Of a DNA stretch of 64,000 bases, positions 2,726 to 59,735 are shown in pieces; the first letter of the stretch is position 1; every line of letters starts with the position of its first letter. The stretch spans positions 2,560,001-2,624,000 of the forward strand of contig OY764159.1 of assembly GCA_963668175.1 (NCBI GenBank). Reading direction: 5' to 3'. The position numbers and the translations under genes were made by a program. The DNA comes from Syntrophales bacterium. Its GTDB lineage: Bacteria; Desulfobacterota; Syntrophia; Syntrophales; PHBD01. The notes beneath the pieces are model-generated. The model ran no database searches. It saw only the letters and a list, made by a program, of their open reading frames with translations, and was not told the DNA's origin.

Positions 2726-2733
2726 GGTTAACT

Positions 2734-3048: not shown

Positions 3049-3053
3049 GTGTT

Positions 3054-3251
3054 TAAGCAGGCTGTTGAAAAACGCCCATCTGTCGCGTTGCGCTGCAAGC
3101 CTCGTCAATCGACATACTTCTTGTATGACTCATTCCTCGGCTTTTGCGCGCCTTACATCTGGACATTTTTGAACACCCCCTATGCAGGGGGCATGGCCTG
3201 CGCGCCCCCTGCATAGGGGGTTCAAAATCGAGTTTTTCAAAAAGCTGTTAA
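3054..3251. mobile_element. MITE-like inverted-repeat element, copy 1
   Basis: Left end AGCAGGCTGTTGAAAAACGCCCATCTG, right end ATCGAGTTTTTCAAAAAGCTGTTA; homologous to 15956-16085, 46570-46802 and 57314-57488. Confidence 0.8.
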
Positions 3252-3286: not shown

Positions 3287-3333
3287 ATTCGGGGGCCGCC
3301 ATCTCCTGACTAGGGGATGGTAACACTGGAATT
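3287..3333. repeat. Degenerate copy of the GGGGACAC/CCCCTGACTAGGGG palindromic repeat family
   Basis: ATTCGGGGGCCGCCATCTCCTGACTAGGGGATGGTAACACTGGAATT, immediately upstream of an AT-rich gene. Confidence 0.6.
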
Positions 3334-3366
3334 GAATAGAATATGAGATAATAAGCTTTATGATCT

Positions 3367-4380: not shown

Positions 4381-4404
4381 AAAAGACAATTTGCCACAAT
4401 TCGG

Positions 4405-4445
4405 GGGCCGGTCCCACACCATGCCATGCGTGGAACCGGCCCTTT
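4405..4445. terminator. Hairpin between convergent genes
   Basis: GGGCCGGTCCCAC...GTGGAACCGGCCC followed by TTT. Confidence 0.5.
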
Positions 4446-6463: not shown

Positions 6464-6579
6464 TCACGCTCCCCGCTTTTCTATGCATTTGAGATACTGC
6501 CGGGTCAGGAGATCGCAACTGCGCTCGAAGACGTGGCCGGGGAGGAAGGTCTTGCAGCCGGTGTCGGCGAGGATGCGCC
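6464..6579 (-). pseudogene. Duplicated 3' fragment of the MBL-fold hydrolase gene
   Basis: 6493-6579 matches 7603-7689 at 83 of 87 nt; reads RILADTGCKTFLPGHVFERSCDLLTRQYLKCIEKRGA*. Confidence 0.85.
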
Positions 6580-6686: not shown

Positions 6687-7280
6687 CTACAGCAAAAGAT
6701 TGTCTTTCTGCAGGTCGTTCAAAAAAGCCAGCAGCATACCGTCGATCACTTCCTTTCCCATGTCGACAGGCGAATGGGTCGGGGTCAGAAAAATCATGAA
6801 GAGCTGTATCCATGTGTCCATATAGTTCTCGTATCGATATTGCTTCAGTAATTGATCGCCTTTCTTGACATCTACAATGAGCGTGAAATTGTCTCTCGCA
6901 AAGCCCGGAAGCACGGTAAATGTGAATCCGGAAACAAATCCGCTTATGAACGCAGCAGCTATGTTCCCATCGTTCTTGAGCACCAGCGATAAGTGATATT
7001 TTTCTCTGCCTGTCCCCGGACTGAATTTCGAAAAGACGTTACTCTTAGCGAAGACTTTTTCTATTTCTCCCTGGAAGTGGCTTACGCTGCCGGCATTTTC
7101 TCTGTCCAGTGAAAAACATTTGACATCGTAATCAACGGCCGGCTTCGGTTCGCGGACGAGGACTTGTTCGTACGTATATTTCGGCAGATTGTTACCCGGA
7201 AAACTTGCACACCCCACAGCCAGAAAGCAGAGAATGCCCACTACGAAATACTTCATGCCGGCAAATCGTTTCCGTCTCAT
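6687..7280 (-). CDS. Hypothetical lipoprotein, lower GC than its flanks
   Basis: Lipobox LAVGC; GGAG RBS before ATG 7280. Confidence 0.75.
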   Translation of the reverse strand: MRRKRFAGMKYFVVGILCFLAVGCASFPGNNLPKYTYEQVLVREPKPAVDYDVKCFSLDRENAGSVSHFQGEIEKVFAKSNVFSKFSPGTGREKYHLSLVLKNDGNIAAAFISGFVSGFTFTVLPGFARDNFTLIVDVKKGDQLLKQYRYENYMDTWIQLFMIFLTPTHSPVDMGKEVIDGMLLAFLNDLQKDNLLL

Positions 7281-7573
7281 AGTCTCCCTTCTTTCATACG
7301 GTTCCAATGAAATCGTTATTAGGCGTGTTCTCAACATGATCGAAGGCTTTTGATCAAGTGAACCCTGCAGCCGTTATAATGCGGCGCGGCACAAGGTAAA
7401 TTCAGGCCCAAGGTACAGTCGGATGCGGGAATATGAAATAAAATGGTGATTTTGTCAAGACGATATATCAGTATAATATATATAATGACAACCGCTGAAA
7501 GGCAATTGGTATCTATGGGTTGCAGATAGAGAAAAGCGGAACTCCGGGCAAGATAGTTATGCAGACGCGTGAG

Positions 7574-8281
7574 TCATTCCCTCGACCGCTCCGTGAATAT
7601 CCGATACTGCCGGGCCAGGAGATCGCGGCTGCGCTCGAAGCCGTGGCCGGGGAGGAAGGTCTTGCAGCCGGTGTCGGCGAGGATGCGCCAGCTTTCGACC
7701 ATCCGGGGGATGTCCTGCCCGAAGGGGGGGAAGACGGAGCCCGGCACGACGCCGAAAATGGCATCGCCCGCGAGCGCAATGCCGCCCGCGACGACGCTCA
7801 CGGAGCCTTCCGTGTGGCCGGGTGTGGGGAGGATGGTCGCATCGATACCGAAGGGGGCGAGGTGCAAGATCCCGTCTACGAGAAAGTCGGGCTTCGCGGC
7901 CGGGTAGGCCAGTAATTGCTGCATCCGGCTCCTGACGAGAGCGATCAGGAGCCGCGTCGGTGCGACGGTGCCGGCGATCGCGGAATTCCCGCCCATCTCA
8001 AGGAACGGCGCCTCGCTCCGGTGAATGAATATCTTCAGCCCGAAATGTTTTTTCAGGTAGGCCGCGTTTTCGGCGTGGTCGTAATGGGCATGGGTAAGGA
8101 CGAGGTAATCGACGGTGCCGACGCCGACTTTACGAAGCCGCGCCAGGAGCGTATTCAGGCTCGATGCCCTGCCCGTATCGACCATGCACGTGCGGTCTCC
8201 CGAGACGATAAGGTAGGCGTTGGCCCGACCTCCCAGCAATCGACGGACGACTGCGCCGTTTCCTGCCTGCCAGGTTTTCAT
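7574..8281 (-). CDS. MBL-fold metallo-hydrolase
   Basis: VDTG, THAHYDHA (HxHxDH), TPGHT, AGD and PGHG motifs. Confidence 0.93.
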   Translation of the reverse strand: MKTWQAGNGAVVRRLLGGRANAYLIVSGDRTCMVDTGRASSLNTLLARLRKVGVGTVDYLVLTHAHYDHAENAAYLKKHFGLKIFIHRSEAPFLEMGGNSAIAGTVAPTRLLIALVRSRMQQLLAYPAAKPDFLVDGILHLAPFGIDATILPTPGHTEGSVSVVAGGIALAGDAIFGVVPGSVFPPFGQDIPRMVESWRILADTGCKTFLPGHGFERSRDLLARQYRIFTERSRE

Positions 8282-15244: not shown

Positions 15245-15958
15245 ATGAAAACGGAAAAAAAGAAGATGATGTCGACAAAGGATGTGCCGCCCCAATGCGC
15301 TTTTTGCGGCATCGATGTGAAGCTTTGCCGGTCTGAAGAGGGGACGGGACCCGGGTTCTGCCCGACGAGAAACAAGGGGGAGATCGTCGAGGCGTCCCTG
15401 GCCAAGTACAGGAAGCGAGGCACCATGCGCTTCGCCAGATCCGCCTCCCTCCAGGAGGCCGAGTGCTACGACCGCCGGGACGAAAAGCCCTTCGTGATGC
15501 GCCCGGTCAGGACCCGCGTGGAAGAGATCGTCGAGTTCGCCGGGAGGATGGAATACAAGAAGCTGGGAGTGGCGTTCTGCATCGGACTCATGCAGGAGGC
15601 CAACACCTTTGTCCGAATACTCAGAAAGAACGGCTTCGAGACCGTCTCCGTCTGCTGCAAGGCGGGCGGCGTGCCCAAAGAATTCCTGGGCCTTGGCGAG
15701 GACGAGAAGGTGAGGATAGGCGCTTACGAGACGATGTGCAACCCCATCGCCCAGGCGGATATCCTGAACGACGCCGGGACCGATTTCAACATCCTGATCG
15801 GGCTCTGCGTAGGGCACGACTCCCTTTTCTTCAGGCACGCCAAGGCCATGACGACCGTCCTTATCGCCAAGGACCGGGTGCTGGGCCATAATCCCGCCGC
15901 GGCGCTCTACGGGGCAACGGGGTACTTCCAGCGACTGATGCATCCGGACAAGGACTAG
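15245..15958 (+). CDS. DUF1847 family Cys-rich metal-binding protein
   Basis: TRVEE, KKLGVAFCIGL, SVCCK, MCNPIAQA, GLCVGHDSLF and KDRVLGHNP motifs. Confidence 0.88.
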   Translation: MKTEKKKMMSTKDVPPQCAFCGIDVKLCRSEEGTGPGFCPTRNKGEIVEASLAKYRKRGTMRFARSASLQEAECYDRRDEKPFVMRPVRTRVEEIVEFAGRMEYKKLGVAFCIGLMQEANTFVRILRKNGFETVSVCCKAGGVPKEFLGLGEDEKVRIGAYETMCNPIAQADILNDAGTDFNILIGLCVGHDSLFFRHAKAMTTVLIAKDRVLGHNPAAALYGATGYFQRLMHPDKD

Positions 15959-16085
15959 CAGTCTGTTGAAAAACGCCCATCTGTCGCTTGCCCCCTTCAG
16001 GGGGCATGGCCTGTGCGCCCCCTGCATAGGGGGCCGCGCCCCCCGAATGGGGGGTTCAAAATCGAGTTTTTCAACAAGTCGTTAG
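15956..16085. mobile_element. MITE-like element, copy 2 (internally deleted, three hairpin inserts)
   Basis: TAGCAGTCTGTTGAAAAACGCCCATCTGTCGC...AATCGAGTTTTTCAACAAGTCGTTAG; its first TAG is the DUF1847 stop codon. Confidence 0.78.
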
Positions 16086-30168: not shown

Positions 30169-31587
30169 CTAGAGCCAGATGAATTTATTCTGTCCCGTGG
30201 CGCATTCGCTGCACATCCTGACGGGCGCAGGGTATCCGTAATTGGGCGCCTTGGCGCGTACCTGGCTGCAAGTGTCGCAGAAGATCCTCCCACAGACACG
30301 GCAGTGATGGCGCCTTGTCACGATCCCGAAGGTTGTCTTGCATTTATGGCAGGCCTTGGCGGCTTCATCCGGCACCCAGTGGGGGTTGTCGATCTCTTTC
30401 GAGCTTTTGACGGCCTGGGCCGGGGGGATTTTGACCGGCCCGGCGATATGGACCCACGGGACGGTGCCCGGCAGGAAGCAGGTGTTGAACTCCGTCATGC
30501 TCATGCCCGTCGTGCCGCCGTGGGCGTGGAACGACTGGACGAACCCCCGCGTTTCCGGCTGATGCGCGAAGGCGATATAATTCAGGGCGGGATAACCCGT
30601 CTTGGGATCGACGTTCTTCTGCACCTGCGTGATGAAGGCGTGGTTGCTTCCCCCGCCGCCGTCGCAGTTGAAGACGTAACCGTCGGGCATGGCCACGACC
30701 GATTCGCTCTTGATGCTCATGCCCGCCGACGGGACGAGATGGATCTGGACCCTCGGCTGCCCGACCGCCGGCGGGGAACGCCACAGCCGCCGCATGGCGT
30801 GATCGAGGCAGACCTCCATCCCGAAACGGATGCCGTCGACGGAGAACATGCCCAGCCCCTCGTAGCGCAGGCGCTGCGCCTCCTTTCCGCTGCCGCGGTT
30901 AAGGTTGCCTCCCTTGCCGGCCTTCAGGTGTTCGACGTCTTCGTGCATGAGCTTGTCGCCCACCTTGTCCCGCGGCTCGATCAGGATCTCCGTCACCTTG
31001 CCGGTATTGTCCTTGTTTTCCGAGCTTTTGCTCAGGAAGTCGATGCCGGACTTGAACTCCTTCATGACGATGCACGATCCGGACTCGCCCGTGTTGCCCT
31101 TCTGCACGACGACGATGTTGTAAACTTCAAGGCCGCGGTCGCGGGCGATGGACGGTCCCTGCGGGCGGTCCATGGCGTGCTTCTCGGAGGATGCGATGCA
31201 GCTCCCGAAGACGAAGAGCCAGTCCTTGAAAATGCTTGGGCTGACGAAGCTCCTAAGGCGCTCGACGATATTCAAGTAGGTTTCGAGGGAGTATGCGCCC
31301 TTCGTGCCGCGGAAGTAGAACTCGGGCGCCATGAAGAGCTTGAGGCAGTTGGCGCTCTTCTGGACGGCCAGCGATTCGTAGGCTCGGCGGATGGCGTCTT
31401 CCATGAGGGAACAGCGAAGCTGGATGTCCTTATCGTCGTCGGCGATGCCCGTGTATTGCTGCAGGCGCTCGTAGACGGGAAGGAGGGTGTTTAAGTCCGC
31501 GATTTCGAAGCCCTTGAGCGCACCCTTCACCTGCTTCGGAAACGTATCCAGCCTGTAGGCGATGAATTGGATATTTTGGTAGGCCAT
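30169..31587 (-). CDS. Nitrilase-like domain fused to a C-terminal FYVE zinc finger
   Basis: FMAPEFYF / VMKE / EVCLDH (E-K-C-like triad); WVPD...CHKC...RRHHCRVCG-x-x-FC-x-x-C...VRMC-x-x-C; GGAGG RBS. Confidence 0.85.
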   Translation of the reverse strand: MAYQNIQFIAYRLDTFPKQVKGALKGFEIADLNTLLPVYERLQQYTGIADDDKDIQLRCSLMEDAIRRAYESLAVQKSANCLKLFMAPEFYFRGTKGAYSLETYLNIVERLRSFVSPSIFKDWLFVFGSCIASSEKHAMDRPQGPSIARDRGLEVYNIVVVQKGNTGESGSCIVMKEFKSGIDFLSKSSENKDNTGKVTEILIEPRDKVGDKLMHEDVEHLKAGKGGNLNRGSGKEAQRLRYEGLGMFSVDGIRFGMEVCLDHAMRRLWRSPPAVGQPRVQIHLVPSAGMSIKSESVVAMPDGYVFNCDGGGGSNHAFITQVQKNVDPKTGYPALNYIAFAHQPETRGFVQSFHAHGGTTGMSMTEFNTCFLPGTVPWVHIAGPVKIPPAQAVKSSKEIDNPHWVPDEAAKACHKCKTTFGIVTRRHHCRVCGRIFCDTCSQVRAKAPNYGYPAPVRMCSECATGQNKFIWL

Positions 31588-42355: not shown

Positions 42356-42423
42356 AAAGAAACGGCCCCCGTTGCCGGTTCGTCGCCCGGCTGCGGGAGC
42401 CGCATCCCAAAAGGTGTTGCGAA
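42356..42423 (-). terminator. Terminator-like repeat, copy 1 of 3
   Basis: AGAAACGGCCCCCG..CCGGTTCGTCGCCCGGC.GCGGG.GCCGC; near-identical to 51591-51645 and 53577-53648; hairpin plus T-rich tail on the minus strand. Confidence 0.7.
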
Positions 42424-43560: not shown

Positions 43561-44106
43561 TTAGGGTAATTCTATAAAGTGAACAATCTCAGATACCGAA
43601 GACAGACTTCCATCGAAGCTTCCTTCTTGCCGGTACATATCAATCATTATATTCCAGAATTCAATTGTCATCTTTCGAAAACGATTGACTTCATCTAAGG
43701 TCAATCTGTCAAGATCATGATAATTTTGATCAAATTTATTTTTTCCGAAATGCCTTATGATTGCGTAATATTTTAGGAATTCACGAAATGTCTTATTCAA
43801 TTGCTTTTGTTTTGTGCGGTCCGTGCGTGTACGGTGCAATAGATATGAAAACATTTCATGAGGTCGTCCCATATTTTCCTTTTCAGGTGATGGGTTATTC
43901 TGCCCAAGTAATTGCATAAGAGACAATCCTAAAGTTGCAATGATGAATGAGCATCGCTCGGTAAAATGGTCAACGTCATCTATTCCAACTTTTGAAATTA
44001 TATTGGCAAGCTCGTTCCAGGCTTCAGACGCCTTAATTAGTGAATATAATTGTAGGTTGGTATCCGATGAAGTAGTAGGTGAAGACAAATGACAGTAATA
44101 TCTCAT
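43561..44106 (-). CDS. AT-rich hypothetical protein
   Basis: 181-aa ORF in an AT-rich patch; repeat arm AATTCCGGGGACACCAT just upstream (44163-44179). Confidence 0.6.
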   Translation of the reverse strand: MRYYCHLSSPTTSSDTNLQLYSLIKASEAWNELANIISKVGIDDVDHFTERCSFIIATLGLSLMQLLGQNNPSPEKENMGRPHEMFSYLLHRTRTDRTKQKQLNKTFREFLKYYAIIRHFGKNKFDQNYHDLDRLTLDEVNRFRKMTIEFWNIMIDMYRQEGSFDGSLSSVSEIVHFIELP

Positions 44107-44162
44107 TGCCTAATATGTCTCCATTCTTGATTAAGTATCATGACCTATACGAATAATTCCGT

Positions 44163-44179
44163 AATTCCGGGGACACCAT
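44163..44179. repeat. Single arm of the GGGGACAC palindromic repeat family
   Basis: AATTCCGGGGACACCAT, reverse complement of the arm ending at 49824. Confidence 0.7.
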
Positions 44180-44228
44180 TTGATACTGCCGCTGCGTTCG
44201 TTTGCGGAAGAGCGGCGCACTGGACGGG

Positions 44229-46569: not shown

Positions 46570-46802
46570 TGACAGGCCACGCCCCCCGCATGGGGGGTGT
46601 TGAAAAACGCCCATCTGCTGCTTGTCACCTTCAGGTGATGTTGCACTTCTTCCCTCGGATGCTCACGTACCCTTATGTATGCTCCGCTCCTCGGGCCTCG
46701 CGCGCCTTGCATCCGGACATTTTTGAACCCCCTGAAGGGGGCAAGCAGCCTGCGCGCCCCCTGCATAGGGGGTTCAATATCGAGTTTTTCACAAGCTGCC
46801 AG
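46570..46802. mobile_element. MITE-like element, copy 3
   Basis: CAGGC[hairpin insert]TGTTGAAAAACGCCCATCTG...ATCGAGTTTTTCACAAGCTG. Confidence 0.78.
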
Positions 46803-47389
46803 AGATATCTGTTCGCTCCTAAATATCGTCCTTTCGGGCAGCACGGGGAAGAATAACAGTCTGCAAAATTGCCATTTCCTATATCGCATTTTGCCGGAAA
46901 ATAAAACCCGTGGAATGCGAAATCTTTCTCTTTGATGTGCGAATCCCGGGGGGATCGCCCGATGCGGCGCCTTATCTCGTCAGGGCCGGGCGGGAAAAAT
47001 GCGGGCGGAAATGTGCGTTGCGTCACAGCCGGTTGCACGGAAATATGGCACCATCGTTTCCAACGGGGATAATCAGGGCTTTGCGGCGGACAATTAAGGC
47101 ATCCCCCGATGGAGAAGCGGTTACGGATCGGACCATAATAGAGAGGCGGCGAGCAATCGCAACATGAACCCAGGCCTGGGAAGGCAAGGGGGGGCGCCAA
47201 AGGGGGGCATACACATGGACGGGCAGAAGAGAATGGAACCGAAGCGGGAGACGAAACAGGATACCAAGCGGCGTCTGACGAGGGTGCATGCCTATCCGGG
47301 GCCGGTTTTCCTGGCCGCGGCCAAACAGGTATCGGAAGCCCTGTACAGGGACCTGGGACGATTCACCCGAACCGCCAGGTAGCCGAACC

Positions 47390-47432
47390 ATTCCGGGGAT
47401 GCCATCCCCCCTGGTCAGGGGACGCGGTACAC
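47390..47432. repeat. GGGGACAC-family arm carrying a CCCCTGGTCAGGGG hairpin
   Basis: ATTCCGGGGATGCCATCCCCCCTGGTCAGGGGACGCGG, nearly the same as 59441-59478. Confidence 0.7.
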
Positions 47433-47513
47433 AATGATTTATCCTTCCCGGAAGTCAATCATTAAATAAGTGCGATGTCCCGAGAATTCTTTCGGCAAAG
47501 GACGGAAAATAGA

Positions 47514-48343: not shown

Positions 48344-48618
48344 GCAGCGACAGGGCGGGGCTGACGCCGATGCGGCGATTATCGAATCGGCACAAGGAGT
48401 AGGGCGGATGGAGGCGACTGTAAAATAAAAGGGCGCCGTGTTGGATTCCTTTACAGGTGGGGCATGGGAAGATCGGTATTATTTTGTGAAGAATTGTAAA
48501 CGCTGTCCGGGCGCGGGTTGAGAGAACGGGGTACGGTCCTGGAAGGCATGCGAAGGGGTGCGGGACGGCGCGATCAACCATTGTTTCCCGTTTGTTTTCG
48601 CAGGCTTCATGATCTTCG

Positions 48619-48921
48619 TCAGGGCCGCGTGTTTCCGCAGTTCCAGCACTCTGTGAATTGCCCCTCGATATCCTCGCCGCACGAATTGCATGTCCAGCCG
48701 GCTATTTCTTTTTCTGTAAGCGCTTCGTCCACAATGCGCATCGCTTCCGGGAAATCGTCGTCAATTACACATAGCCGAGGCCAGCACTCTATCGGCGGAA
48801 GCTCGCCGATCCCCGCGGAGAGAAATTCATTTTTTATCCAGCATTTGATCCCGTTTGCTTCCAGGATGTTCTGAAATATACTGACAAGCGGGAGGGTCGG
48901 TGCGCTGTAAACGGTCTTCAT
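48619..48921 (-). CDS. DUF2007-like protein with a C-terminal zinc ribbon
   Basis: LEANGI-x-C-x-IKNE...GELP...WP-x-L; WTCNSCGE-x-IEGQF-x-x-CWNCG. Confidence 0.85.
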   Translation of the reverse strand: MKTVYSAPTLPLVSIFQNILEANGIKCWIKNEFLSAGIGELPPIECWPRLCVIDDDFPEAMRIVDEALTEKEIAGWTCNSCGEDIEGQFTECWNCGNTRP

Positions 48922-48955
48922 TTTCTCTCTCCGGTTTGCCTTCTTGATGCATCCG

Positions 48956-49026
48956 AATAATTCCGGGAACAAGCATACTAAATTGAGGAAAAATCGGAAT
49001 ACCGGAACGATGTCACCAGAATTATT
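48956..49026. repeat. Cassette-spacer palindromic repeat R1
   Basis: AATAATTCCGGGAACAAGCATACTAAATTGAGGAAAAATCG...TGTCACCAGAATTATT. Confidence 0.75.
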
Positions 49027-49053
49027 GTGGAAAACATGATAGTGAACCAGTTT

Positions 49054-49338
49054 TCATGCCGCTGTTTTCAGCGTAACATGCATGCCGGCCCTCGTGGCAA
49101 GAGTGACAAGCATTTCAAGACTGAATCGCTCCCATTTGCCTCTAATCAGATCCGATATCCTGGACTGACTAACACATAGCATTTTCGCAGCATTGGTCTG
49201 TGTAAGTTTCCGGGTTTCGATGAACTTGCGAAGCTTGTCCATAAGATCGGCACGCATCTGAAGAATAGCGGCCTCTTCCTGAGAATATCCAAGATCGATA
49301 AATACATTGCCGGAAGACTTGATAATCGCGTTCTTCAT
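49054..49338 (-). CDS. XRE/HTH antitoxin (HigA-like)
   Basis: SSGNVF-x-DLG...LTQ-x-x-AA-x-x-L-x-VSQ-x-RIS-x-L-x-RGK...FSLE-x-L. Confidence 0.88.
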   Translation of the reverse strand: MKNAIIKSSGNVFIDLGYSQEEAAILQMRADLMDKLRKFIETRKLTQTNAAKMLCVSQSRISDLIRGKWERFSLEMLVTLATRAGMHVTLKTAA

Positions 49339-49341
49339 AAA

Positions 49342-49662
49342 TTATCCTCCCATTTGCCTGTAGCGCTGGCGAGTCAAATCGATATCCTGCCGCCTTGTTT
49401 TTCTTGTTTTCTTTTGAAATGCGTGAAGCACATAAACGGCATCGCGAAGATTGGCTATATAGATAACCCGCCACTCCCCAAGAAAATGAATACGAATTTC
49501 TTTAACGCCGGAGCCGACAGCCTGTATTGGCTTCCAGTCGCTTGGTTCAAGTCCCGACTGAATGGCGTGGAGTTCAAAACCGGCAGCCCGTCTTGCTTCA
49601 TCGGGGAAGTTCCGGAGATCTTCCAGACTCGATCACACGAATTTCAACGGTTTCATCTTCAT
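49342..49662 (-). pseudogene. RelE/Gp49-like toxin with a premature stop at codon 10
   Basis: Manual translation MKMKPLKFV*SSLEDLRNFPDEARRAAGFEL...DWKP...GVKEIRI...RVIY...VYVLHAFQKKT...; TGA at 49633-49635. Confidence 0.85.
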
Positions 49663-49727
49663 GGCGCCATTATATAAGTTTTTGTATATTTGGCAAGAAT
49701 AAATTCCCGGTCAATGAATACCCGGGG

Positions 49728-49825
49728 TTCCGGGGACGCAATCCCCCCTGGTCCGGGGACACGTTTCCTAGTCAGGGGGCAGTGTTCCCGGAAATTCTCG
49801 AATTAAGTATGGTGTCCCCGGAATC
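49728..49825. repeat. Cassette-spacer palindromic repeat R2 (composite)
   Basis: TTCCGGGGACGC...CCGGGGACAC...CCTAGTCAGGGG...GTGTTCCCGGAA...AATTAAGTATGGTGTCCCCGGAAT. Confidence 0.8.
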
Positions 49826-49876
49826 GTTAATAGGAATTGCCGTGAATTATGGTTTGAAGGAAAGTTATGCGGCCGA

Positions 49877-50713
49877 TTAATCTGACGGCTTGGCATTCGG
49901 CTGTATGGGTTTGTTAGAAGTGCCATATGGTTCTTGACGGCACAACTTGAACCACTCGCACGCTATCCCTCGAAACGGCTTATAAGGTTTATTGTTCTGA
50001 ATTGCGTGAACCTGATTCCATGGTATGAAGTGATATGAATTTCTGTCGTCGAGGATCAGTACCCCCTTTTCAAAAGTTCTCAGAATATTTCCCGAAACTG
50101 AGGCAGATGGTGCACTTCGTTCTATGGTTACCTTGGAAGGTTTACGGACGGTCGCATCTAACGCAGCATTGTATCCACTAAAAAATGCGACAATTACGAT
50201 AATAGGTAAGAATGTGAATCCAAACTGAACTTGTCTACTACGACGAATTTTAATGAGGGGAGCCGCGTAACACCACTCCGCAAATCCCATCCACACAATC
50301 GATAACATCAAAGGTAGTATAGACGCAAAAACATCCCCAATCAACACATAGATAATCACATAAAGTGGTGCCGTCCAGGCCATTAATTTCCATGGGCCTT
50401 CTCGAAACTTTCGCATCCGTTCCGGATTAGAAGCAGACTCAATAATTTCCTTTTCATTTAGCCCTCGTTCTATTCTCTTGAACTGGAATTCAATAGCAAC
50501 ACTACCAAGAAGAAAGAATAGAAGGTATGGAAACCATAGTAGGCCACTCCGAAAATGATCAGTGGTCGTTGTATGCAATTTCGCAAAATCTAAGCCCAAA
50601 GCGTAAAAGAAGCCCCAATCGTAAATGACAGAAACGACAAATCCGGCGGCAACTGCAACGGCAACGCCTTCTGCAAGGGTGCCCAAAGATATAGCTTTAT
50701 ATTCACTTAGCAT
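49877..50713 (-). CDS. AT-rich hypothetical membrane protein
   Basis: 278-aa ORF with about five hydrophobic helices, flanked by R2 and R3. Confidence 0.7.
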   Translation of the reverse strand: MLSEYKAISLGTLAEGVAVAVAAGFVVSVIYDWGFFYALGLDFAKLHTTTTDHFRSGLLWFPYLLFFLLGSVAIEFQFKRIERGLNEKEIIESASNPERMRKFREGPWKLMAWTAPLYVIIYVLIGDVFASILPLMLSIVWMGFAEWCYAAPLIKIRRSRQVQFGFTFLPIIVIVAFFSGYNAALDATVRKPSKVTIERSAPSASVSGNILRTFEKGVLILDDRNSYHFIPWNQVHAIQNNKPYKPFRGIACEWFKLCRQEPYGTSNKPIQPNAKPSD

Positions 50714-50723
50714 AAAAAATCAC

Positions 50724-50812
50724 ATAACTCTGGAGACATCCATACTAAATAAAGGGAAAAATCGATCAATAAGTCCGCGTCCCCTGACTAGGGGGTGGTG
50801 TCTCCGGAATTC
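50724..50812. repeat. Cassette-spacer palindromic repeat R3
   Basis: ATAACTCTGGAGACATCCATACTAAATAAAGGGAAAAATCGATCAATAAGT[CCGCGTCCCCTGACTAGGGGG]TGGTGTCTCCGGAATTC. Confidence 0.85.
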
Positions 50813-51153
50813 TTTTGACACGAATCCAAGTTCCTCTTTTCGATTTTAGTTGCTGAAAGAATATCTTTTAATAGACCTAATACGTATGTGTAAAAGAGAA
50901 TTGCCGCCGCAAGAAAAAAACCCGATTTGCCTGTCGCGTAATAATGACTACCAATAATCATAAGAACAGCTATTAATTTTAAGAATTCAATTTGAAAATA
51001 ACCATATTTTTCATGAAATTTAAAGTATTTATTATCTATTGAATGATGATGCTTTTTCGCATAGTAGAGTAAAATTGCATCTAGAAAATAAAATACTATC
51101 AATGAATATTCGATAAATGAATCAAGTATCGATATATACTCTGTTAATTTCAT
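50788..51153 (-). CDS. Very AT-rich hypothetical membrane protein; stop codon lies inside repeat R3
   Basis: 121-aa ORF with three hydrophobic segments; its tail NSGDTTP* is translated repeat sequence. Confidence 0.55.
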   Translation of the reverse strand: MKLTEYISILDSFIEYSLIVFYFLDAILLYYAKKHHHSIDNKYFKFHEKYGYFQIEFLKLIAVLMIIGSHYYATGKSGFFLAAAILFYTYVLGLLKDILSATKIEKRNLDSCQKNSGDTTP

Positions 51154-51164
51154 GAGGCCTCATT

Positions 51165-51430
51165 AATAATTCTGGAAACACCATACTCAATAGAGGCAAA
51201 AATCGATCAATAAGTACCGCGCGCGCCCCCGGACTAGGGGGTGGTATGCCCGAGATTGTTGACATATCGTTAGCCGATAAGTATCAAAGTATGAAAATAC
51301 ACATATATTTTATATAATCCATTGCCCTTGTCAAGCGTCTAATTCGCGGCAACGGACTTATACGCGGTTCCTGGCGGTGCATTGCGCGGGTGAGCCTGCG
51401 GGAGTGTTAACGGCAAAATGAATGAGCCCC
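51165..51430. repeat. Repeat R4 plus conserved leader (homologous to 59483-59735)
   Basis: AATAATTCTGGAAACACCATACTCAATAGAGGCAAAAATCGATCAATAAGTA...; leader TATATAATCCATT.C.CTTGTCAAGCG...CTTAT...CGGTTC..GGCGGTGC. Confidence 0.8.
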
Positions 51431-51590
51431 CCCCGGAGTGCGGCGCGTTTGATTCGCGTAATCCGGGGCGGCGTCTGCGGCGGGAATTAGGGGAGGATAG
51501 AAAGATAACGCCCGTTCTGCCGGGGCGGCTTCGCGGCGTGGGCGTGGACTTCGAGGGAGCTTTGGGGATTCCGGCCGACGCTCGATGCGC

Positions 51591-51645
51591 CAAATAGAAA
51601 CGGCCCCCGTACCGGTTCGTCGCCCGGCGGCGGGGGCCGCATCCA
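51591..51645 (-). terminator. Terminator-like repeat, copy 2 of 3
   Basis: CAAATAGAAACGGCCCCCGTACCGGTTCGTCGCCCGGCGGCGGGGGCCGC. Confidence 0.75.
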
Positions 51646-51661
51646 GGAATTGTATCGCACA

Positions 51662-53143
51662 TCAGCCGATCAGCCTAGTTACTTGGCCGCACTCCCTGCA
51701 AATGCGAGTTCGGGACATATGAGAACTTCTCCGGAGCAGGTAGCCATGCGCGGCGCAATAGCGCTTTCCGCAAAACGTGCACTCGTGCCATCTGGTTCCC
51801 ACCGTCGTGCCCCCTGCGCGATAGACAGCGCCGCATCCTTTCTCGCAACATGCGTTCGCCGGCGAGGCAACGCCGTGCTTGTCTTCGGGTTTGGGTAGCA
51901 GCGTGCGCCAGATCCTTTTCCAGTCCGCCTCATGGACGGTAAGGGCATCCAGAAACAGGTTGCCGCCTATGGCCAGATTCTGAGGCGTGTTCTGGAGCCG
52001 CGGGTGCTTTTGCAGACGGTTGAACGCGGCCTTGTGTCCCACGTCCATCGTGTTCACGGATGTCTGGAGAAGCGAAACTCCGTATTTGAGGTAATGATAG
52101 CAATCCAGGTGCCAGCGCGTATTGAGGGCTTTCGCGATTTTAATGTAATCGGGGGCCTCTCCCGTATCGGGGAGGGGGTGCCACGATTCCCCCCGGCCGA
52201 GATGAATCGAAGAGGGCGGATAGTTTGCGGCATACATATAGGTGGTGCAAGGGAAGCAGGAGGCCATTTTCGTCGTGTCCTTACCCACGGCCATTTCGTA
52301 CGGCGTGCACCAGGGGCCGCATTTGATGGATTCCCGTATCGCCCAGCTCATCCCGTGAACATATCCGACGACGCCTTTATGACGCAGGCGAGATTCCTCG
52401 TCAGATGATAACGGGCCCATTCCCTTGGACGGATCGGGACTCAGATTCATCTCCGGATTCTTCGGCGGACTGATGAGCCCGTGTTCGCGTTGCCCGAAGC
52501 CGCCTTCCTTGTGCCACCGGTTCTCGTGCGGCACGACGATGCGTTTTGTGGGCTGCACGAGCGTGTTGTGATAGACGGGATCGTCGATCATGCCCGTGTA
52601 GGCGCCCCTGCCATAATAGCCCCCCGGCTGGTACATCTCCTGTTTTCCCCGGGTTATTCCCCCTGGATCAGCAGGGGGCTTGACTCTCGCGGGGCCGGTA
52701 ACCATCGCGCCCCCCGCGCGGCCGGTGATTCGTTCACCGATGTCCCATTGCGGCGATTGCGCATCCTTGATCAATGGGCTGTGCAAATGGTTCTTATTGA
52801 GCACCTGGGTCATCGCCTCGACGACGACGAGGAAGGACTGCATTTCTTCCAGATGCTCGATATATTCCTGCTTCGCCTTTTTCCATTTCTCTTGATCCGC
52901 TGGTTTACCTTCTAGCATCGTAAGATCATGATCGAATTGCGGATTGTCCATTCTTTCGAAGAGGAGCGTCGTTTCGGGGTCCTTCGTTTCGATATCGAAG
53001 CTGAACGGCTGTTCGAGATGTATCCGCGTGGCGCTGAATCCCAGCACGGTCGCAGTGACAATAACATCGGCTTCATGATTGCAGCGCTCTTGATATGTTC
53101 TGTGATCCAAGTGAATGTTATCACCGAGTATTGTTTTCATCAT
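51662..53143 (-). CDS. Hypothetical protein with a C-terminal FYVE-like zinc finger
   Basis: GGAGG RBS before ATG 53143; central ASCFPC...HLGRGESW; C-terminal CEKGC...RWHECTFCGKRYCAAH...RICREC. Confidence 0.72.
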   Translation of the reverse strand: MMKTILGDNIHLDHRTYQERCNHEADVIVTATVLGFSATRIHLEQPFSFDIETKDPETTLLFERMDNPQFDHDLTMLEGKPADQEKWKKAKQEYIEHLEEMQSFLVVVEAMTQVLNKNHLHSPLIKDAQSPQWDIGERITGRAGGAMVTGPARVKPPADPGGITRGKQEMYQPGGYYGRGAYTGMIDDPVYHNTLVQPTKRIVVPHENRWHKEGGFGQREHGLISPPKNPEMNLSPDPSKGMGPLSSDEESRLRHKGVVGYVHGMSWAIRESIKCGPWCTPYEMAVGKDTTKMASCFPCTTYMYAANYPPSSIHLGRGESWHPLPDTGEAPDYIKIAKALNTRWHLDCYHYLKYGVSLLQTSVNTMDVGHKAAFNRLQKHPRLQNTPQNLAIGGNLFLDALTVHEADWKRIWRTLLPKPEDKHGVASPANACCEKGCGAVYRAGGTTVGTRWHECTFCGKRYCAAHGYLLRRSSHMSRTRICRECGQVTRLIG

Positions 53144-53576
53144 GGCCTCCTTTGCCCGTGATGCTACAACAGGGTCCAGAACCCGGAGGTGATAAAAGCG
53201 AAAAAGGAAAGATAAGGGAATGATCTCCACCGTCCGGCGTTAAATCCGGCCGCACCTGGGGTCAGGGCGGCTTCCGGCATGCTTCAGCAGGAGCAGGTCG
53301 AGCGCAGCGCTGGCTTCTTCGTCGAAAATCCGCTGAAAAAAATGCCTTTTCATCAGCGCATTTCTGATTAGGAACTTGCTATAAAAAAATCGTACGCAAA
53401 ACGGAATTGCCTGTCAAGGAATAAATGAATAACTTGAAATAATATTAGTAACATATGCGTGTAGATAACCCCGGAGTGCCCGTGTCGCGGGGGTCAATAT
53501 ATAGATCGTTATGCTATTTCTTATACATATACTCTAGGGATATGCTTCTCGTGCGATCCGGGCGCTGATGCAGGCT

Positions 53577-53634
53577 CAAATAGAAACGGCCCCCGGCACC
53601 GGTTCGTCGCCCGGCGGCGGGGGCCGCGTCCACA

Positions 53635-53648
<14 letters not shown>
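53577..53648 (-). terminator. Terminator-like repeat, copy 3 of 3
   Basis: CAAATAGAAACGGCCCCCGGCACCGGTTCGTCGCCCGGCGGCGGGGGCCGC...AAAGGTGTCGCGAA. Confidence 0.75.
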
Positions 53649-57312
<3,664 letters not shown>

Positions 57313-57313
57313 T

Positions 57314-57488
57314 TAGCAGGCTGTTGAAAAACGCCCATCTGTCGTTTATCACCTTCAGGTGACGTCGCGCCGCAAGCCTCGTCAATCGACATACCTCTAT
57401 GTATGCCTCATTCCTCAGCTTTTGCGCGTCTTACATCTGGACATTTTTGAACAGCCTGTTTGTAATCGAGTTTTTCAAAAAGCTGTTA
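57314..57488. mobile_element. MITE-like element, copy 4 (no C-run/G-run hairpin inserts)
   Basis: TAGCAGGCTGTTGAAAAACGCCCATCTG...CATCTGGACATTTTTGAACAGCCTG...ATCGAGTTTTTCAAAAAGCTGTTA; abuts the nifJ RBS. Confidence 0.82.
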
Positions 57489-57815
57489 ATATGAACCTAT
57501 AAGCTATAGGTCGAATGACACAAACAGCAATCCAACAGCACGTGCCTTCTTAGGGTGTAGCCTCGGAATTGGAAGCAGCCTCGGAATGGGTGGACATCCG
57601 GTAACCGGGGATAGACTTAAGATGTGACAGAACTATACTGGACGATAGCCGCTGTAACACAAAAATGTAAGATTATCAAAAGAAAATTGAAACGCCCGAA
57701 GGCGGCGATAACAGGGCGAAATTCCCTGTCCCCGGCGGCTTCGGCGGGGGTGATAACGTTACCTGAACCGGTAGGTCAGGGGAAATATCCGTTTTCTCCT
57801 TGAGAAAACTTATCA

Positions 57816-57874
57816 CCGCGTCCCCTGAACAGGGGATGGACGTCCCCTGACCAGGGGCGCGTGGCCCGGAATTG
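57816..57874. repeat. Repeat R5 (right half with two hairpins)
   Basis: CCGCGTCCCCTGAACAGGGGATGGACGTCCCCTGACCAGGGGCGCGTGGCCCGGAATTG. Confidence 0.75.
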
Positions 57875-57895
57875 CGGAACTTGTATATTGCAAAT

Positions 57896-58414
57896 TCATT
57901 CAAATCGAGAAATGAATTCTCCAATTTGGTCAAATCTATTTAATTGAATCAGATATAAAATTCCCACAGTGAATAATATAAATGGTATCGAAAGCATAAT
58001 AAAATAAGAGCCATGATATAAACCCAACGTTGCGAAAAAAATAAATACTAAGGCTACAATAAGAGAGCTATAATTAACAATTCCTTTAATTTGAAGAATC
58101 TGATCGTTGTACTTAATAAAAATGAATCCCCTCATTATGGGTGTATATACGAGAAAGCTTGCAGATAGCATTGATTCCCTGAAGCCAATTTCGCTACTGC
58201 TAAATTCATGAAAAATTATCGGTTGAAACCATTTACTTCTATTTTGCGCATTCAATTCTTCTATGGGCGGTATTTTCCTGAAATTATATTCTTTGGAATA
58301 AATCACTAACCCTCTGGTGAAAAGGGTTCTGGACCAAGTCGATTCTAAAGACGCTTCCAGCACAATAATTGCGATGACTGTTAGTACCCCGATAATAATC
58401 ATGGTCTCGTTCAT
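57896..58414 (-). CDS. AT-rich hypothetical membrane protein
   Basis: One N-terminal and two C-terminal TM helices; flanked by R5 and R6; start uncertain. Confidence 0.65.
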   Translation of the reverse strand: MNETMIIIGVLTVIAIIVLEASLESTWSRTLFTRGLVIYSKEYNFRKIPPIEELNAQNRSKWFQPIIFHEFSSSEIGFRESMLSASFLVYTPIMRGFIFIKYNDQILQIKGIVNYSSLIVALVFIFFATLGLYHGSYFIMLSIPFILFTVGILYLIQLNRFDQIGEFISRFE

Positions 58415-58449
58415 CTTTCTTAACCCATGATATGTTTCACAACAATCGG

Positions 58450-58555
58450 TAATTCTTGGGACCCTTATTATATAGAGGAAAAAATCGGCGAATAAGTGCC
58501 GCGTCACCTGACCAGGGGAGCGTGCTCACTGACTCGGGGAGGTGTTCCCGGCATT
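58450..58555. repeat. Repeat R6
   Basis: TAATTCTTGGGACCC...TAGAGGAAAAAATCGGCGAATAAGT[GCCGCGTCACCTGACCAGGGG]...GGTGTTCCCGGCATT. Confidence 0.75.
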
Positions 58556-58805
58556 AGGCTACTGATTAAGAGTCGGTTGTTCTTCTCGCAGTCTTTGCCG
58601 CCATCGGAGCAAATGCCGTCCGACAAGAAAACATGTATATTTTTGTATTGAAATACAATATTATTAGGCGTATTTAATATAGTCATATAGAGATTTCACG
58701 AATCATTTCTACTCCTGCACCCCCCGGAGGGTCGCACTTCCATGTCTGCAACAAAGAAGAGCAATATATCAAGATCGTTATTTCTTTGAAAGGAGCATAT
58801 CGCAT

Positions 58806-59420
58806 ATGATTCATCCCGTTAGATTATATCAATCCGTTTATCGCATCATAACCGCTTTCACAATTTTTGTAATTTTGACAGGGTGTGCAGGGGGACGCGA
58901 TTTCACACGTCCTGATCCCGGAAGCCTTCAGCTTGGCAAAACAACATATGAAGAAGTCATTCAGAAATATGGAGATCCGCTTCGCCCGACAACAAAAATT
59001 ATAGATGGAGAAACGGTAAACGAAATTTCTTATTCATATGCGTATGCTGTGCCTTACACGACTACGGTACGCTCTCGCTCGTCTTCATTTTCTTTCTGGA
59101 AGGGCGCGTTGATTGGCTATCGATACACGAGCTCCTTCCCTGAGGATAATGCCAAATTTGACGATGGAAAAGTTTCCGCAATTACACGTGGTGTAACAAA
59201 GAAACAACAAGTCATCGATTTGCTGGGTGTGCCGGCAGGTTATTCTCAATATCCGCTTATTAAAGAAAAGAATACCCTGGGTTTGGTTTACACAGCCTAC
59301 GAAACGTGGCGCATACCGTTCACACCCACTCTGCGTTATATCACTAAGACCTTGATCGTTACCTGCGGGCCGGATGATATCGTCATTTCTACGGAACTTT
59401 CATCCTCTGAGTCGAAATAA
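58806..59420 (+). CDS. Hypothetical lipoprotein with two BamE/SmpA-like repeats
   Basis: Lipobox LTGC; LGKTTYEEVIQKYGDP and RGVTKKQQVIDLLGVP; AGGAG upstream. Confidence 0.75.
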   Translation: MIHPVRLYQSVYRIITAFTIFVILTGCAGGRDFTRPDPGSLQLGKTTYEEVIQKYGDPLRPTTKIIDGETVNEISYSYAYAVPYTTTVRSRSSSFSFWKGALIGYRYTSSFPEDNAKFDDGKVSAITRGVTKKQQVIDLLGVPAGYSQYPLIKEKNTLGLVYTAYETWRIPFTPTLRYITKTLIVTCGPDDIVISTELSSSESK

Positions 59421-59440
59421 TGCCTTGATGCGAGCAGATT

Positions 59441-59735
59441 AATTCCAGGGACGCCATCCCCCCTAGTCAGGGGACGCGCCCATTTCCGGGGACACGGTGC
59501 TGAATAGATGGAAAAATCGATATATAAGTAACGCCTCCCCTGACGGGGAGATCGTGTGCCCGGAATTGCGGATATATCGTGGATCAATGAGTATCCAAGT
59601 ATAAGAATTCAAATATACTTTATATAATCCATTCCTCTTGTCAAGCGGGTATTATGTCGCAATAGGCTTATGCCCGGTTCTCGGCGGTGCGGGGTGCTGA
59701 CTGCTGCGGGGAGTCTTTCAAATGAATAAAAAACC
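59441..59735. repeat. Repeat R7 plus conserved leader (homologous to 51165-51430)
   Basis: AATTCCAGGGACGCCATCCCCCCTAGTCAGGGGACGCG...TTTCCGGGGACAC...GAAAAATCGAT..ATAAGTA...GTGCCCGGAATT, then the leader. Confidence 0.8.

Follow-up and report, generated by a model that had tools for sequence, protein, structure and literature searches.

Modular palindromic repeats between AT-rich foreign genes: two small co-oriented arrays on a Syntrophales-type chromosome

Gene content of the two arrays

The window, i.e. the whole 64-kb stretch of DNA that was analysed, contains an array in which a DUF2007 gene is followed by the repeat R1, a toxin-antitoxin pair, R2, a membrane ORF, R3, a second membrane ORF, R4 and a leader (Table 1). 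A preceding sequence-only reading had given the same order, and its placement of R1 to R4 holds, as an nhmmer profile recovers all four at these sites. The cargo lies on the minus strand throughout and is richer in A+T than its surroundings, as that reading had also claimed: from the DUF2007 gene to the 121-aa ORF the GC content is 0.53, 0.47, 0.50, 0.43 and 0.30, compared to about 0.61-0.62 in the flanks. Followed away from leader 1, gene GC climbs from 0.30 through 0.43 and about 0.48 to 0.53.

Pfam searches and hydropathy support the proposed identities of the DUF2007, antitoxin and toxin genes and of the two hydrophobic ORFs. In the long ORF the PF09413 match begins with residue 18, the ATG at 48921. 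Translation reveals that the toxin frame is interrupted by an in-frame TGA at the 10th codon (49633-49635), and the promoter scan assigns to the toxin-antitoxin pair a promoter-like site of its own (TTGCCA-16-TATAAT, 49696->49669). The 278-aa protein has 68 relatives with 31-71% identity, for example in Desulfonauticus submarinus, and is the one member of its own 90% cluster. For the 121-aa ORF a search of 5.8 billion clusters found the ORF itself alone among 14 candidates, and Pfam, NCBIfam, PADLOC and PHROG returned no match.

Co-oriented cassettes predict a common promoter that reads into them. Such a putative promoter is present in leader 1, where it matches the consensus at 11 of 12 positions in the promoter scan, and has a paralogue in leader 2. 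The two leaders share 77% mean column identity, and the window holds no third copy; a supposed leader remnant next to R3 is not above chance, its scores being reached by 107 and 709 of 1000 shuffles.

Leader 2 heads a second array spanning 57.8-59.7 kb. Its 172-aa ORF has no family match in Pfam, NCBIfam, PADLOC and PHROG searches, and its lipoprotein gene lies on the strand opposite to the rest of the array, in which the GC gradient is absent. Two further islets carry repeat fragments: in islet A one immediately precedes a DUF2971 gene (3367-4380, GC 0.38; Pfam), and in islet B a 181-aa ORF (43561-44106, GC 0.36) has an arm 56 nt upstream.

Table 1. Coordinates of genes, leaders and repeat elements in the window
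Feature	Position	Strand	Description
Islet A border	3287..3336	+	Arm-like sequence, mini-hairpin, arm; partial copy 3300-3334, nhmmer E 0.002
Islet B border	44160..44180	+	Lone perfect arm (exact match); nhmmer E 0.035
Extra copy	47387..47489	-	Full-length, different 45-nt middle module; nhmmer E 8.8e-9
DUF2007 gene	48619..48921	-	Pfam PF09413 E 8e-15; GC 0.53; last in array
R1	48955..49026	+	Arm, core (1-nt deletion, diverged 3' end), arm; without mini-hairpin
HTH_37 (HigA-like) antitoxin	49054..49338	-	Pfam PF13744 E 3.2e-19
Gp49/HigB-like toxin gene	49342..49662	-	Pfam PF05973 E 5.2e-24, matched downstream of internal stop
R2	49728..49825	-	Inverted composite; two or three arm/hairpin units; nhmmer E 6.5e-8
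278-aa multi-pass membrane protein	49877..50713	-	Uncharacterised family; GC 0.43; hydropathy
R3	50722..50813	+	Full: arm, 33-nt core, mini-hairpin, arm; nhmmer E 1.7e-25
121-aa hydrophobic ORF	50788..51153	-	GC 0.30; hydropathy
R4	51164..51261	+	Full, adjoins leader 1, decayed arms; nhmmer E 4.8e-25; DNA fold z -0.06
Leader 1	51262..51400	-	Conserved, ~140 nt; promoter-like TTGACA-16-TAAAAT, 51334->51307, aimed into array
Two mini-hairpins + right arm	57815..57877	+	Distal end of second array; DNA fold z -4.33
172-aa hydrophobic ORF	57896..58414	-	GC 0.33; hydropathy
R58	58448..58556	+	Full, doubled mini-hairpin, between divergent cargo genes; DNA fold z +1.19
204-aa lipoprotein	58806..59420	+	LTGC lipobox; GC 0.44; PHROG 3135 E 1.4e-11
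Partial inverted unit + full copy	59440..59571	+	Abutting; DNA fold z -3.62
Leader 2	59569..59710	-	Promoter-like TTGACA-16-TAAAGT, 59644->59617

Architecture and location of the repeats

Scanning the 64-kb window with an nhmmer profile built from five repeat copies confirms a modular family of 70-110 nt with seven full and five partial copies. Its arm, a 15-nt inverted AATTCCGGGGACACC, serves as terminal inverted repeat; the 33-nt core is asymmetric, conserved and optional; the third module is a C4-loop-G4 mini-hairpin. The core motif ATARAKGNAAAAATCGNNNNATAAGT occurs four times compared to 0.00 expected from 100 shuffles, and the core (AAAAATCG...ATAAGT) is the best-conserved portion (77-91%), whereas the arms decay. 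All five core-bearing copies share one orientation. Of the earlier description as inverted arms around an asymmetric spacer, the family and the spacer are real, but the arms pair imperfectly in most copies and several have decayed. With inverted ends, arms of 15-20 nt and a non-coding element of 70-110 nt, the repeats are built like MITEs (inverted ends, <300 nt).

Individual copies differ considerably. R1, R3 and R4 lie in one orientation and R2 is inverted, as originally noted. R1 (nhmmer match 48955-49022 +, E 4.4e-13) pairs at 16 of 24 arm positions, and R2 (DNA fold z -2.97) has lost the core beyond its first ~17 nt. R3 takes up all of the sequence that separates the 278-aa ORF from its 121-aa neighbour, whose stop and last ~8 codons it also provides, and carries GGAGAC in place of GGGGAC in both arms. 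R58 is matched at 58448-58539 + (E 1.4e-23) and has decayed arms. Of the copies that had been listed elsewhere, those at 58450 and 59441 are genuine, the latter comprising a partial (59440-59479, E 7e-4) and a full copy (59479-59571 +, E 4.3e-25); those at 3287 and 57816 turned out to be hairpin-plus-arm fragments, the second made up of partial copies at 57815-57839 and 57840-57877 (E 0.005 each), and 44163 consists of one arm. R2, 57815-57877 and 59440-59571 contain tandem or nested units. The full copy at 47387-47489 had been overlooked; neither of its flanking genes is AT-rich.

DNA fold z-scores of the repeats range from -3.6 to +1.2 and are lower still in the partial element at 57815-57877. 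Covariation in the mini-hairpin stem is not above chance, the observed score being reached by 286 of 500 shuffles. The lack of excess covariation is expected of an ageing selfish repeat and not of maintained recombination sites.

Related sequence extends beyond the arrays. The window has 21 C4-N4-8-G4 hairpins, 20 of which are intergenic while intergenic DNA makes up 24% of it, and the core-gene intergenic regions concerned include 15991-16039, 46582-46757 and 53712-53733. The 12-nt sub-motif ATCGRKTTTTTC (12 matches compared to 1.85 expected) is common to the repeats and to a second, unrelated-looking repeat family of ~190 nt. TA directly precedes 8 of 17 arms and stands at both ends only in R1 and R58; as TA is self-complementary and there is no empty site to compare, a TA duplication is indistinguishable from a longer inverted repeat. 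No Rfam family matches the repeats, and the core motif has only two chance matches among 185,579 species representatives, a set that does not include the source genome.

The repeats are concentrated beside low-GC genes, an enrichment that the sequence-only reading had put forward as a check: they occupy 8 of the 14 gaps adjoining such genes compared to 1 of the 44 others (Fisher p 1.3e-5, ~25-fold). Gaps are almost exactly one repeat long, with about one repeat per gene. The repeats do stand between single AT-rich foreign genes, which form two small co-oriented arrays on this GC-rich Syntrophales-type chromosome. Direct repeats of arm sequence also bracket cargo. The islet A 12-mer ATTCGGGGGCCG recurs at 4399-4410, beyond the DUF2971 gene (1 of 300 shuffles yields a direct repeat of 12 nt), and a 15-nt exact direct repeat between the 57815-57877 element and 59558-59572 encloses the second array (0 of 300 shuffles) and runs 5-6 nt past the family consensus.

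An arm lies 11-70 nt upstream of seven cargo-unit starts (the 121-aa, 278-aa, DUF2007, 172-aa, 181-aa and DUF2971 genes and the toxin-antitoxin pair), all of which are transcribed away from it. This placement would suit cis-acting expression elements, i.e. repeats kept because foreign AT-rich genes become usable or harmless, be it as portable weak promoters, 5' UTRs, terminators, RNA-processing hairpins or nucleoid/regulatory-protein sites at the core, comparable to Neisseria Correia or REP2. A core that is conserved while arms decay is more in keeping with protein binding than with a stem, and RNA folds are stable for several copies (z -2.1, -2.1, -4.0). Correia repeat-enclosed elements, for which PMC2649163 gives functions involving promoters, IHF and RNase III, are likewise ~100 nt long with terminal inverted repeats, a conserved core and long and short forms; like other MITEs they lie just upstream of genes, are co-transcribed and may have a TA flank. 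Unlike in Correia, however, the promoter scan (threshold 9/12) flags nothing inside any repeat. The -35-like and -10-like hexamers read differently between copies, the IHF consensus is by eye not conserved, and core-less partial copies occupy the same positions. We regard a maintained role in expression as quite unlikely.

Comparison with integrons and other mobile elements

The integron-like architecture noted at first sight is present, namely a repeat for roughly every gene, a toxin-antitoxin unit embedded together with a promoter-like site of its own, and a leader promoter pointing into the array. As in the sedentary chromosomal integrons and the CALINs (attC clusters without an integron-integrase) defined in PMC4889954, compact co-oriented single-gene units are each bounded by an imperfect palindrome, one putative promoter stands at the array head, and the cargo is mainly of unknown function; as in a CALIN, no integrase is nearby in the 64-kb window. 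The differences are substantial. The R''/R' boxes of attC sites read RYYYAAC/GTTRRRY. A regular expression for RYYYAAC...GTTRRRY that required complementary boxes at a distance of 45-135 nt and paired inner arms had 0 candidates on either strand of the 64 kb, and the arms here read AATTCCGGGG... instead. Conservation resides in the 33-nt asymmetric core and not in stem geometry, one repeat is inverted, partial units stand in tandem, and each array has 2-4 units. Neither an integrase (PF00589) nor any recombinase, transposase, resolvase or RAYT domain is encoded in the 68 + 22 ORFs of the 64 kb, and 69 more stop-to-stop frames of at least 55 aa in 46.4-59.8 kb contain no recombinase or transposase remnant. 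The two arrays are not an integron, in line with the earlier statement that attC sites and integrase are missing.

In Acinetobacter plasmids, pdif modules are genes, including toxin-antitoxin pairs, bounded by XerC/XerD sites, and their recombinase is not module-encoded. The arrays share the small gene modules, the short bounding sites and the lack of a module-encoded recombinase. Unlike in pdif modules, neither the repeats nor their immediate surroundings contain a dif-like 28-mer (compared with the dif sequence of S. aciditrophicus from PMC2731167); ATAA-N6-TTATG has a single match in the window (3341-3368), which lies outside the first array, has poor outer arms and looks like chance.

The layout recalls E. 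coli BIME-1/RIP, in which two inverted units surround a conserved asymmetric motif. Like the REP, BIME and REPIN sequences (REPINs are described in PMC3337134 and PMC3116915), the repeats are short, GC-rich, imperfect palindromes that are extragenic, non-coding and lineage-specific and occur singly, in inverted pairs and in mosaic clusters. They differ from REP-RAYT systems, as no gene for a RAYT (Y1 HUH transposase) lies within the 64-kb window and no GTAG-type 5' tetranucleotide is obvious by eye in the repeat alignment. Their bias to AT-rich acquired genes and the common promoter leader are not described REP features.

It is very improbable that arm and core are a degenerate Tn3-family terminal inverted repeat, which would make the arrays relics of TIMEs or TIME-bounded composites with passenger genes and the Gp49/HTH_37 pair. 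Together they measure 40 nt, start with GGGG and end with TAAG, with GGAAAAATCG between, a layout also seen in the 38-bp ends of R100/Tn21 and of a TnAs1-type element. In pairwise comparison with TnAs1, 16 and 39 of 2000 shuffles match the top scores, but for the remaining copies this number is 102-401, and every copy scores worse with Tn21. Toxin-first Gp49/HTH_37 pairs are among the toxin-antitoxin types given for Tn3-family transposons in PMC7157771 (7 of 39); Tn4662a carries this type, though its ends are unlike the repeats. According to PMC4133298, TIMEs are non-autonomous, TIME-COMP mobilise the genes between two TIMEs, and the GC of such passenger DNA can be low. An nhmmer profile of four Tn3-family ends nevertheless fails to rank the repeats (best overlap E 210, about rank 40), the palindrome reaches 6 nt beyond the GGGG tip, the second arm lacks the inner domain, and the elements measure ~90 nt compared to ~260 in TIMEs. 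There are no 5-bp direct duplications, the flanks being inverted (AATTCC/GGAATT), and neither tnpA nor tnpR is present in the window. Many direct copies on one replicon are also atypical for the Tn3 family.

Origin of the arrays

Our best explanation, which we favour tentatively, is that the repeats are a mosaic of the REP/BIME or MITE kind, specific to the lineage, which built up in acquired AT-rich DNA and is co-transcribed from the leader promoter. An enzyme encoded elsewhere would spread, or would have spread, them in trans, and they would have a preference for dispensable AT-rich DNA, which tolerates insertions and offers many TA-rich targets, giving about one element per gap. Directly oriented copies could then act as portable homology through which recombination adds, deletes or reorders the bracketed genes, while the conserved leader promoter may transcribe both arrays through the repeats, whose hairpins would punctuate the mRNA. 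Under this explanation the arrays would resemble an integron only incidentally, and no dedicated capture machinery would be involved.

Tandem and nested units together with the differing middle module at 47387-47489 are typical of BIME-like mosaics and argue for such an origin, and the enrichment beside low-GC genes fits an AT-rich/TA target preference plus relaxed selection. We also counted in its favour the divergence of the copies and the arms that no longer pair, the C4-N4-8-G4 hairpins between core genes, the sharing of ATCGRKTTTTTC with a second repeat family, the TA preceding about half of the arms, and the absence of attC boxes, recombinases and an Rfam family. Conversely, an enrichment of this size is likely beyond simple TA/AT preference. 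One-repeat-long gaps and the stop codon supplied by R3 make the repeats resemble junctions and not later insertions into older spacers, and GC rising from leader 1 is as expected of serial leader-proximal insertion. The uniform orientation of the core, the ~140-nt promoter leader that heads both arrays, the exact 12-nt and 15-nt direct repeats and the lack of a demonstrable target-site duplication were also weighed against the mosaic origin. We know of no cognate transposase or parent insertion sequence for the repeats.

Much of this contrary evidence would suit a dedicated, attC-less cassette platform, in which site-specific recombination at the hairpin repeats places single foreign genes beside the promoter leader. 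The HUH/RAYT-like or tyrosine recombinase would be encoded elsewhere, each insertion would leave a repeat on either side, and the array would grow from the leader as in an integron. Compact gaps with about one repeat per gene, core co-orientation, a near-consensus promoter leader common to two arrays and aimed at the cargo, a toxin-antitoxin cassette with its own promoter-like site, cargo consisting of orphans and sporadic families, bracketing direct repeats, the GC gradient and the strong low-GC association are all compatible with it. The direct repeats are, however, partly expected from family homology alone, the arms of R4 and R58 are decayed and fold stability varies between copies, R2 runs the other way without most of the core, the second array has an inverted lipoprotein gene and no gradient, partial units stand in tandem, covariation is absent, and the supposed leader remnant beside R3 is at chance level. 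With no recombinase gene or remnant in the 64 kb, we consider this platform unlikely.

The sequence-only reading had cast the repeats as hairpin recombination sites for a RAYT-like or tyrosine enzyme encoded elsewhere. That proposal gained no positive support: the 64 kb contain no such enzyme or remnant, and uneven folds, stem covariation no higher than in shuffles, the inverted composite R2, the reversed gene of the second array and the hairpins between core genes speak against it. It is improbable that the arm-core-hairpin repeats and the promoter leader constitute an integron analogue without attC or a linked integrase, in which a host-encoded enzyme acting in trans recombines folded repeats and so captures single foreign genes beside the leader. 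In that case several such mini-arrays would follow core-gene terminators on this chromosome.

Modular plan of the arm-type repeat

The window, part of a chromosome, is GC-rich (~0.60 overall, core-gene GC3 0.8-0.9); functions encoded in it include PFOR, c-type cytochromes, PEP-CTERM proteins and deoxyhypusine synthase, and tRNA and tmRNA genes are absent. Among named relatives of its PFOR, those of Syntrophaceae bacterium PtaU1.Bin231 (89%), a Syntrophales MAG (85%) and Syntrophus aciditrophicus (83%) rank highest. The observation made in a sequence-only reading, that palindromic repeats delimit an array of genes at 48619..51430 (the first array), is confirmed and extended here. Its four repeats, R1 to R4, are recovered at their positions by an nhmmer profile, by alignment and by the de novo repeat families D1, D8 and D11, which correspond to parts of the arm-type repeats. 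Run over the window, the profile, built from 5 copies, matches seven full copies, four partial copies and one lone arm. Further members had been placed at 3287, 44163, 57816, 58450 and 59441; all five have matches, those at 3287 and 57816 (57815-57877) being partial and that at 44163 a lone arm.

Matches to the arm-type repeat profile in the window
Feature	Coordinates	Strand	Method
Full copy R1	48955-49022	+	nhmmer
Full copy R2	49728-49825	-	nhmmer
Full copy R3	50722-50813	+	nhmmer
Full copy R4	51164-51261	+	nhmmer
Full copy R58	58448-58539	+	nhmmer
Full copy R59	59479-59571	+	nhmmer
Full copy	47387-47489	-	nhmmer
Partial copy	3300-3334		nhmmer
Partial copy	57815-57839		nhmmer
Partial copy	57840-57877		nhmmer
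Partial copy	59440-59479		nhmmer
Lone arm	44160-44180		nhmmer

Alignment of six copies reveals a common plan in which an arm (AATTCCGGGGACACC) is followed by a core (ATACTAAATAGAGGAAAAATCGATCAATAAGT), a mini-hairpin ((CGCG)TCCCCTGACTAGGGG) and the inverted arm. The core motif occurs four times in the window against 0.00 expected. R2 runs in the inverted orientation, is missing most of the core and comprises two or three stacked units; at 47387-47489 the middle module, 45 nt long, is of another kind. The mini-hairpin is one form of a broader class of C4-N4-8-G4 hairpins, 20 of whose 21 members in the window are intergenic, including in gaps between core genes, and a separate foldback repeat family of ~190 nt holds a 12-nt sub-motif of the core. 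The wider hairpin class, the shared sub-motif and the variant modules show that the genome owns a toolbox of palindromic modules, of which the arm-type repeat is one assembly.

The best-conserved portion of the repeat is the asymmetric core, not the stems. Of nine stretches folded as DNA, four are clearly more stable than their shuffles (z -2.5 to -4.3), R3 is marginal (z -1.33), and R1, R4, 47383-47493 and 58446-58562 are not (z -0.39 to +1.19); RNA folds give a similarly mixed picture. In the better copies ~14-17 of 20-24 arm positions are paired; in R4 and R58 (58448-58556) pairing is poor. The single clear double change is GGAGAC, present in both R3 arms, and covariation among 11 mini-hairpins does not rise above shuffles (286/500).

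Two other repeat families occur in the window. A second family of ~120-210 nt with long foldback symmetry, starting with GCTGTTGAAAAACGCC, is found at 3053-3242, 15954-16076 (a shorter copy), 46588-46794 and 57312-57480. Every copy lies 20-600 nt from an arm-type repeat, with which the family has in common the motif ATCGAGTTTTTC and C5/G5 hairpins, and two directly adjoin core-gene start codons, those of PFOR (57300) and deoxyhypusine synthase (46591). The third family (D6; 42358-42412, 51595-51649 and 53582-53636; 75-85% identical) reads on the minus strand as an intrinsic-terminator-like hairpin followed by a T-run, and each of its copies lies downstream of a different gene.

Low-GC cargo, leaders and gene junctions

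The gene content reported for the first array holds: a DUF2007 gene, an HTH_37 antitoxin, a Gp49/HigB-like toxin and two hydrophobic ORFs. The toxin gene carries an in-frame TGA as its 10th codon (49633-49635) and is, judging from its sequence, probably inactivated; the antitoxin is intact. A second array at 57.8-59.7 kb, missed by the sequence-only reading, has the same plan: partial repeat, 172-aa membrane ORF, repeat, 204-aa lipoprotein gene (opposite strand), partial and full repeat, leader. The leaders of the two arrays (51262..51400 and 59569..59710, both minus strand) share 77% identity over ~270 nt, adjacent repeat included, and each has a predicted near-consensus minus-strand promoter directed at the cargo. 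The window has no third leader.

The proposed enrichment beside low-GC genes is borne out within the window. In a curated set of 59 genes, with repeats called at E < 0.01 and low GC defined as GC < 0.47, a repeat is present in 8 of 14 gaps adjoining a low-GC gene versus 1 of 44 others (Fisher p 1.3e-5, the gaps not being independent). Three of five low-GC islets have a match at this threshold, or four counting the lone arm at 44160; the fifth, devoid of arm-type repeats, is a lipoprotein gene (6687-7337). The cargo looks acquired, since the 68 relatives of the 278-aa protein of the first array are all just 31-71% identical to it, the 121-aa ORF has zero relatives in the same kind of search, and both the DUF2971 protein and the 204-aa lipoprotein have matches among phage protein families. 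In blastn searches of 48600-51450, the plasmid collection yields a single 91-nt match, to a RelE/ParE gene, and the phage collection none; a 49-nt arm-plus-core query finds one weak match.

There are signs that the repeats act as gene junctions. Gaps barely exceed the repeat length, R3 supplies the stop of the 121-aa ORF, seven cargo units have an arm 11-70 nt upstream of their start, and gene GC increases with distance from the first leader. An exact 12-mer (ATTCGGGGGCCG) lies on both sides of islet A, the DUF2971 gene at 3367-4380 (1/300 shuffles), and a 15-mer (GCCCGGAATTGCGGA) reaching 5-6 nt past the family consensus lies on both sides of the second array (0/300 shuffles). However, direct repeats between family members are partly expected, the intergenic repeat of a single-gene islet necessarily borders it, the ends of islet B (the 181-aa ORF at 43561-44106) and of array C share chance 8-mers only (83/300 and 128/300 shuffles), and apparent leader remnants beside R3 and 57878 are not above chance.

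Several neighbouring features are worth recording. The lipoprotein gene at 6687-7337 (GC 0.46) is bracketed by a 96-nt direct repeat (6484-6579 and 7594-7689, 92% identical), one copy of which is the 3' end of a metallo-beta-lactamase-fold gene (7574-8281); the islet looks like an insertion that duplicated or carried along the end of its target gene. A 72-nt direct repeat (53632-53703 and 53761-53832, 93%) is a duplicated PFOR 3' end, and the 57 nt between its copies hold just a C5/G5 hairpin doublet (53709-53748), making this a second instance of an inserted palindromic element flanked by a long target duplication. Another toxin-antitoxin pair (2450-3048; HigB-like toxin, HTH_3 antitoxin) adjoins islet A and a ~190-nt repeat.

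Known recombination systems and transposon ends

As the sequence-only reading stated, attC array and integrase are absent: a pattern search of the window finds no attC-type boxes, and 90 ORFs plus 69 further frames contain no integrase or other recombinase, transposase or remnant thereof. A pattern search for dif-like sites at the repeats is likewise negative, Rfam gives no match at the gathering threshold over the whole window, and in its E-value mode both arrays draw nothing but weak matches to unrelated families. On the evidence of the window, an integron or other known site-specific system is rejected. The 522-aa gene (51662-53230) directly upstream of the first leader was considered as a hidden recombinase and dismissed, having neither a family match nor a usable ESM Atlas match. 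It and a 472-aa protein (30169-31587) are large proteins of unknown function with a terminal FYVE-type zinc finger (Pfam E 1.3e-20 for the latter), to which their alignment is confined (E 0.003); FYVE domains occur mainly in eukaryotes. In a genome collection from which the source genome is absent, the core motif was found at two loci, in a Paludibacter and a Hermodarchaeota MAG, and nothing related was retrieved; lying in AT-rich coding DNA and lacking arms, both loci are attributed to chance.

Origin of the repeats from Tn3-family or TIME ends is very improbable. Arm plus core measures 40 nt, starts with GGGG, ends with TAAG and contains GGAAAAATCG, a layout similar to 38-bp Tn21/TnAs1-type ends, and the toxin-antitoxin pair is of a type that Tn3-family transposons include (PMC7157771). 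The ends fetched for comparison came from R100, pDK1, a Klebsiella plasmid and a Ralstonia plasmid. Against this origin, shuffle tests are marginal, a profile built from fetched ends fails to retrieve the repeats, 5-bp duplications are missing and neither tnpA nor tnpR is found in the window; neither shuffle nor profile test supports Tn3-family membership. A 14-nt exact identity (AAAAAATCGTACGC) with the inner part of a TnAs1-type end lies at 53384-53397, in AT-rich intergenic DNA upstream of the 522-aa gene, with no GGGG tip at the expected distance, and may be chance or a relic.

Interpretation of the locus

Most economically, the locus is explained by a mosaic repeat of REP/BIME- or MITE-like kind, specific to the lineage, a reading that we favour tentatively, at slightly short of even confidence. 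Such repeats would build up within acquired AT-rich DNA, where their homology may drive rearrangement, and would be transcribed from the conserved leader. That they form a dedicated attC-less cassette platform is unlikely, and a cis-regulatory role seems decidedly improbable; the mosaic repeat and the platform are not mutually exclusive.

To our knowledge, integrons are so far the sole bacterial device for stockpiling single genes at a promoter that is well understood. An attC-less cassette platform would be important if true: were the repeats recombination sites, they would represent a second solution, unrelated to integrons, in an understudied anaerobic lineage, and offer a way to study the entry of orphan genes into GC-rich genomes. 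If instead the repeats belong to the ordinary REP/MITE type, the locus remains useful as an example of how strongly repeats of this type can cluster at horizontally acquired DNA and mimic a cassette array, which is relevant to automated searches for new gene-capture systems.
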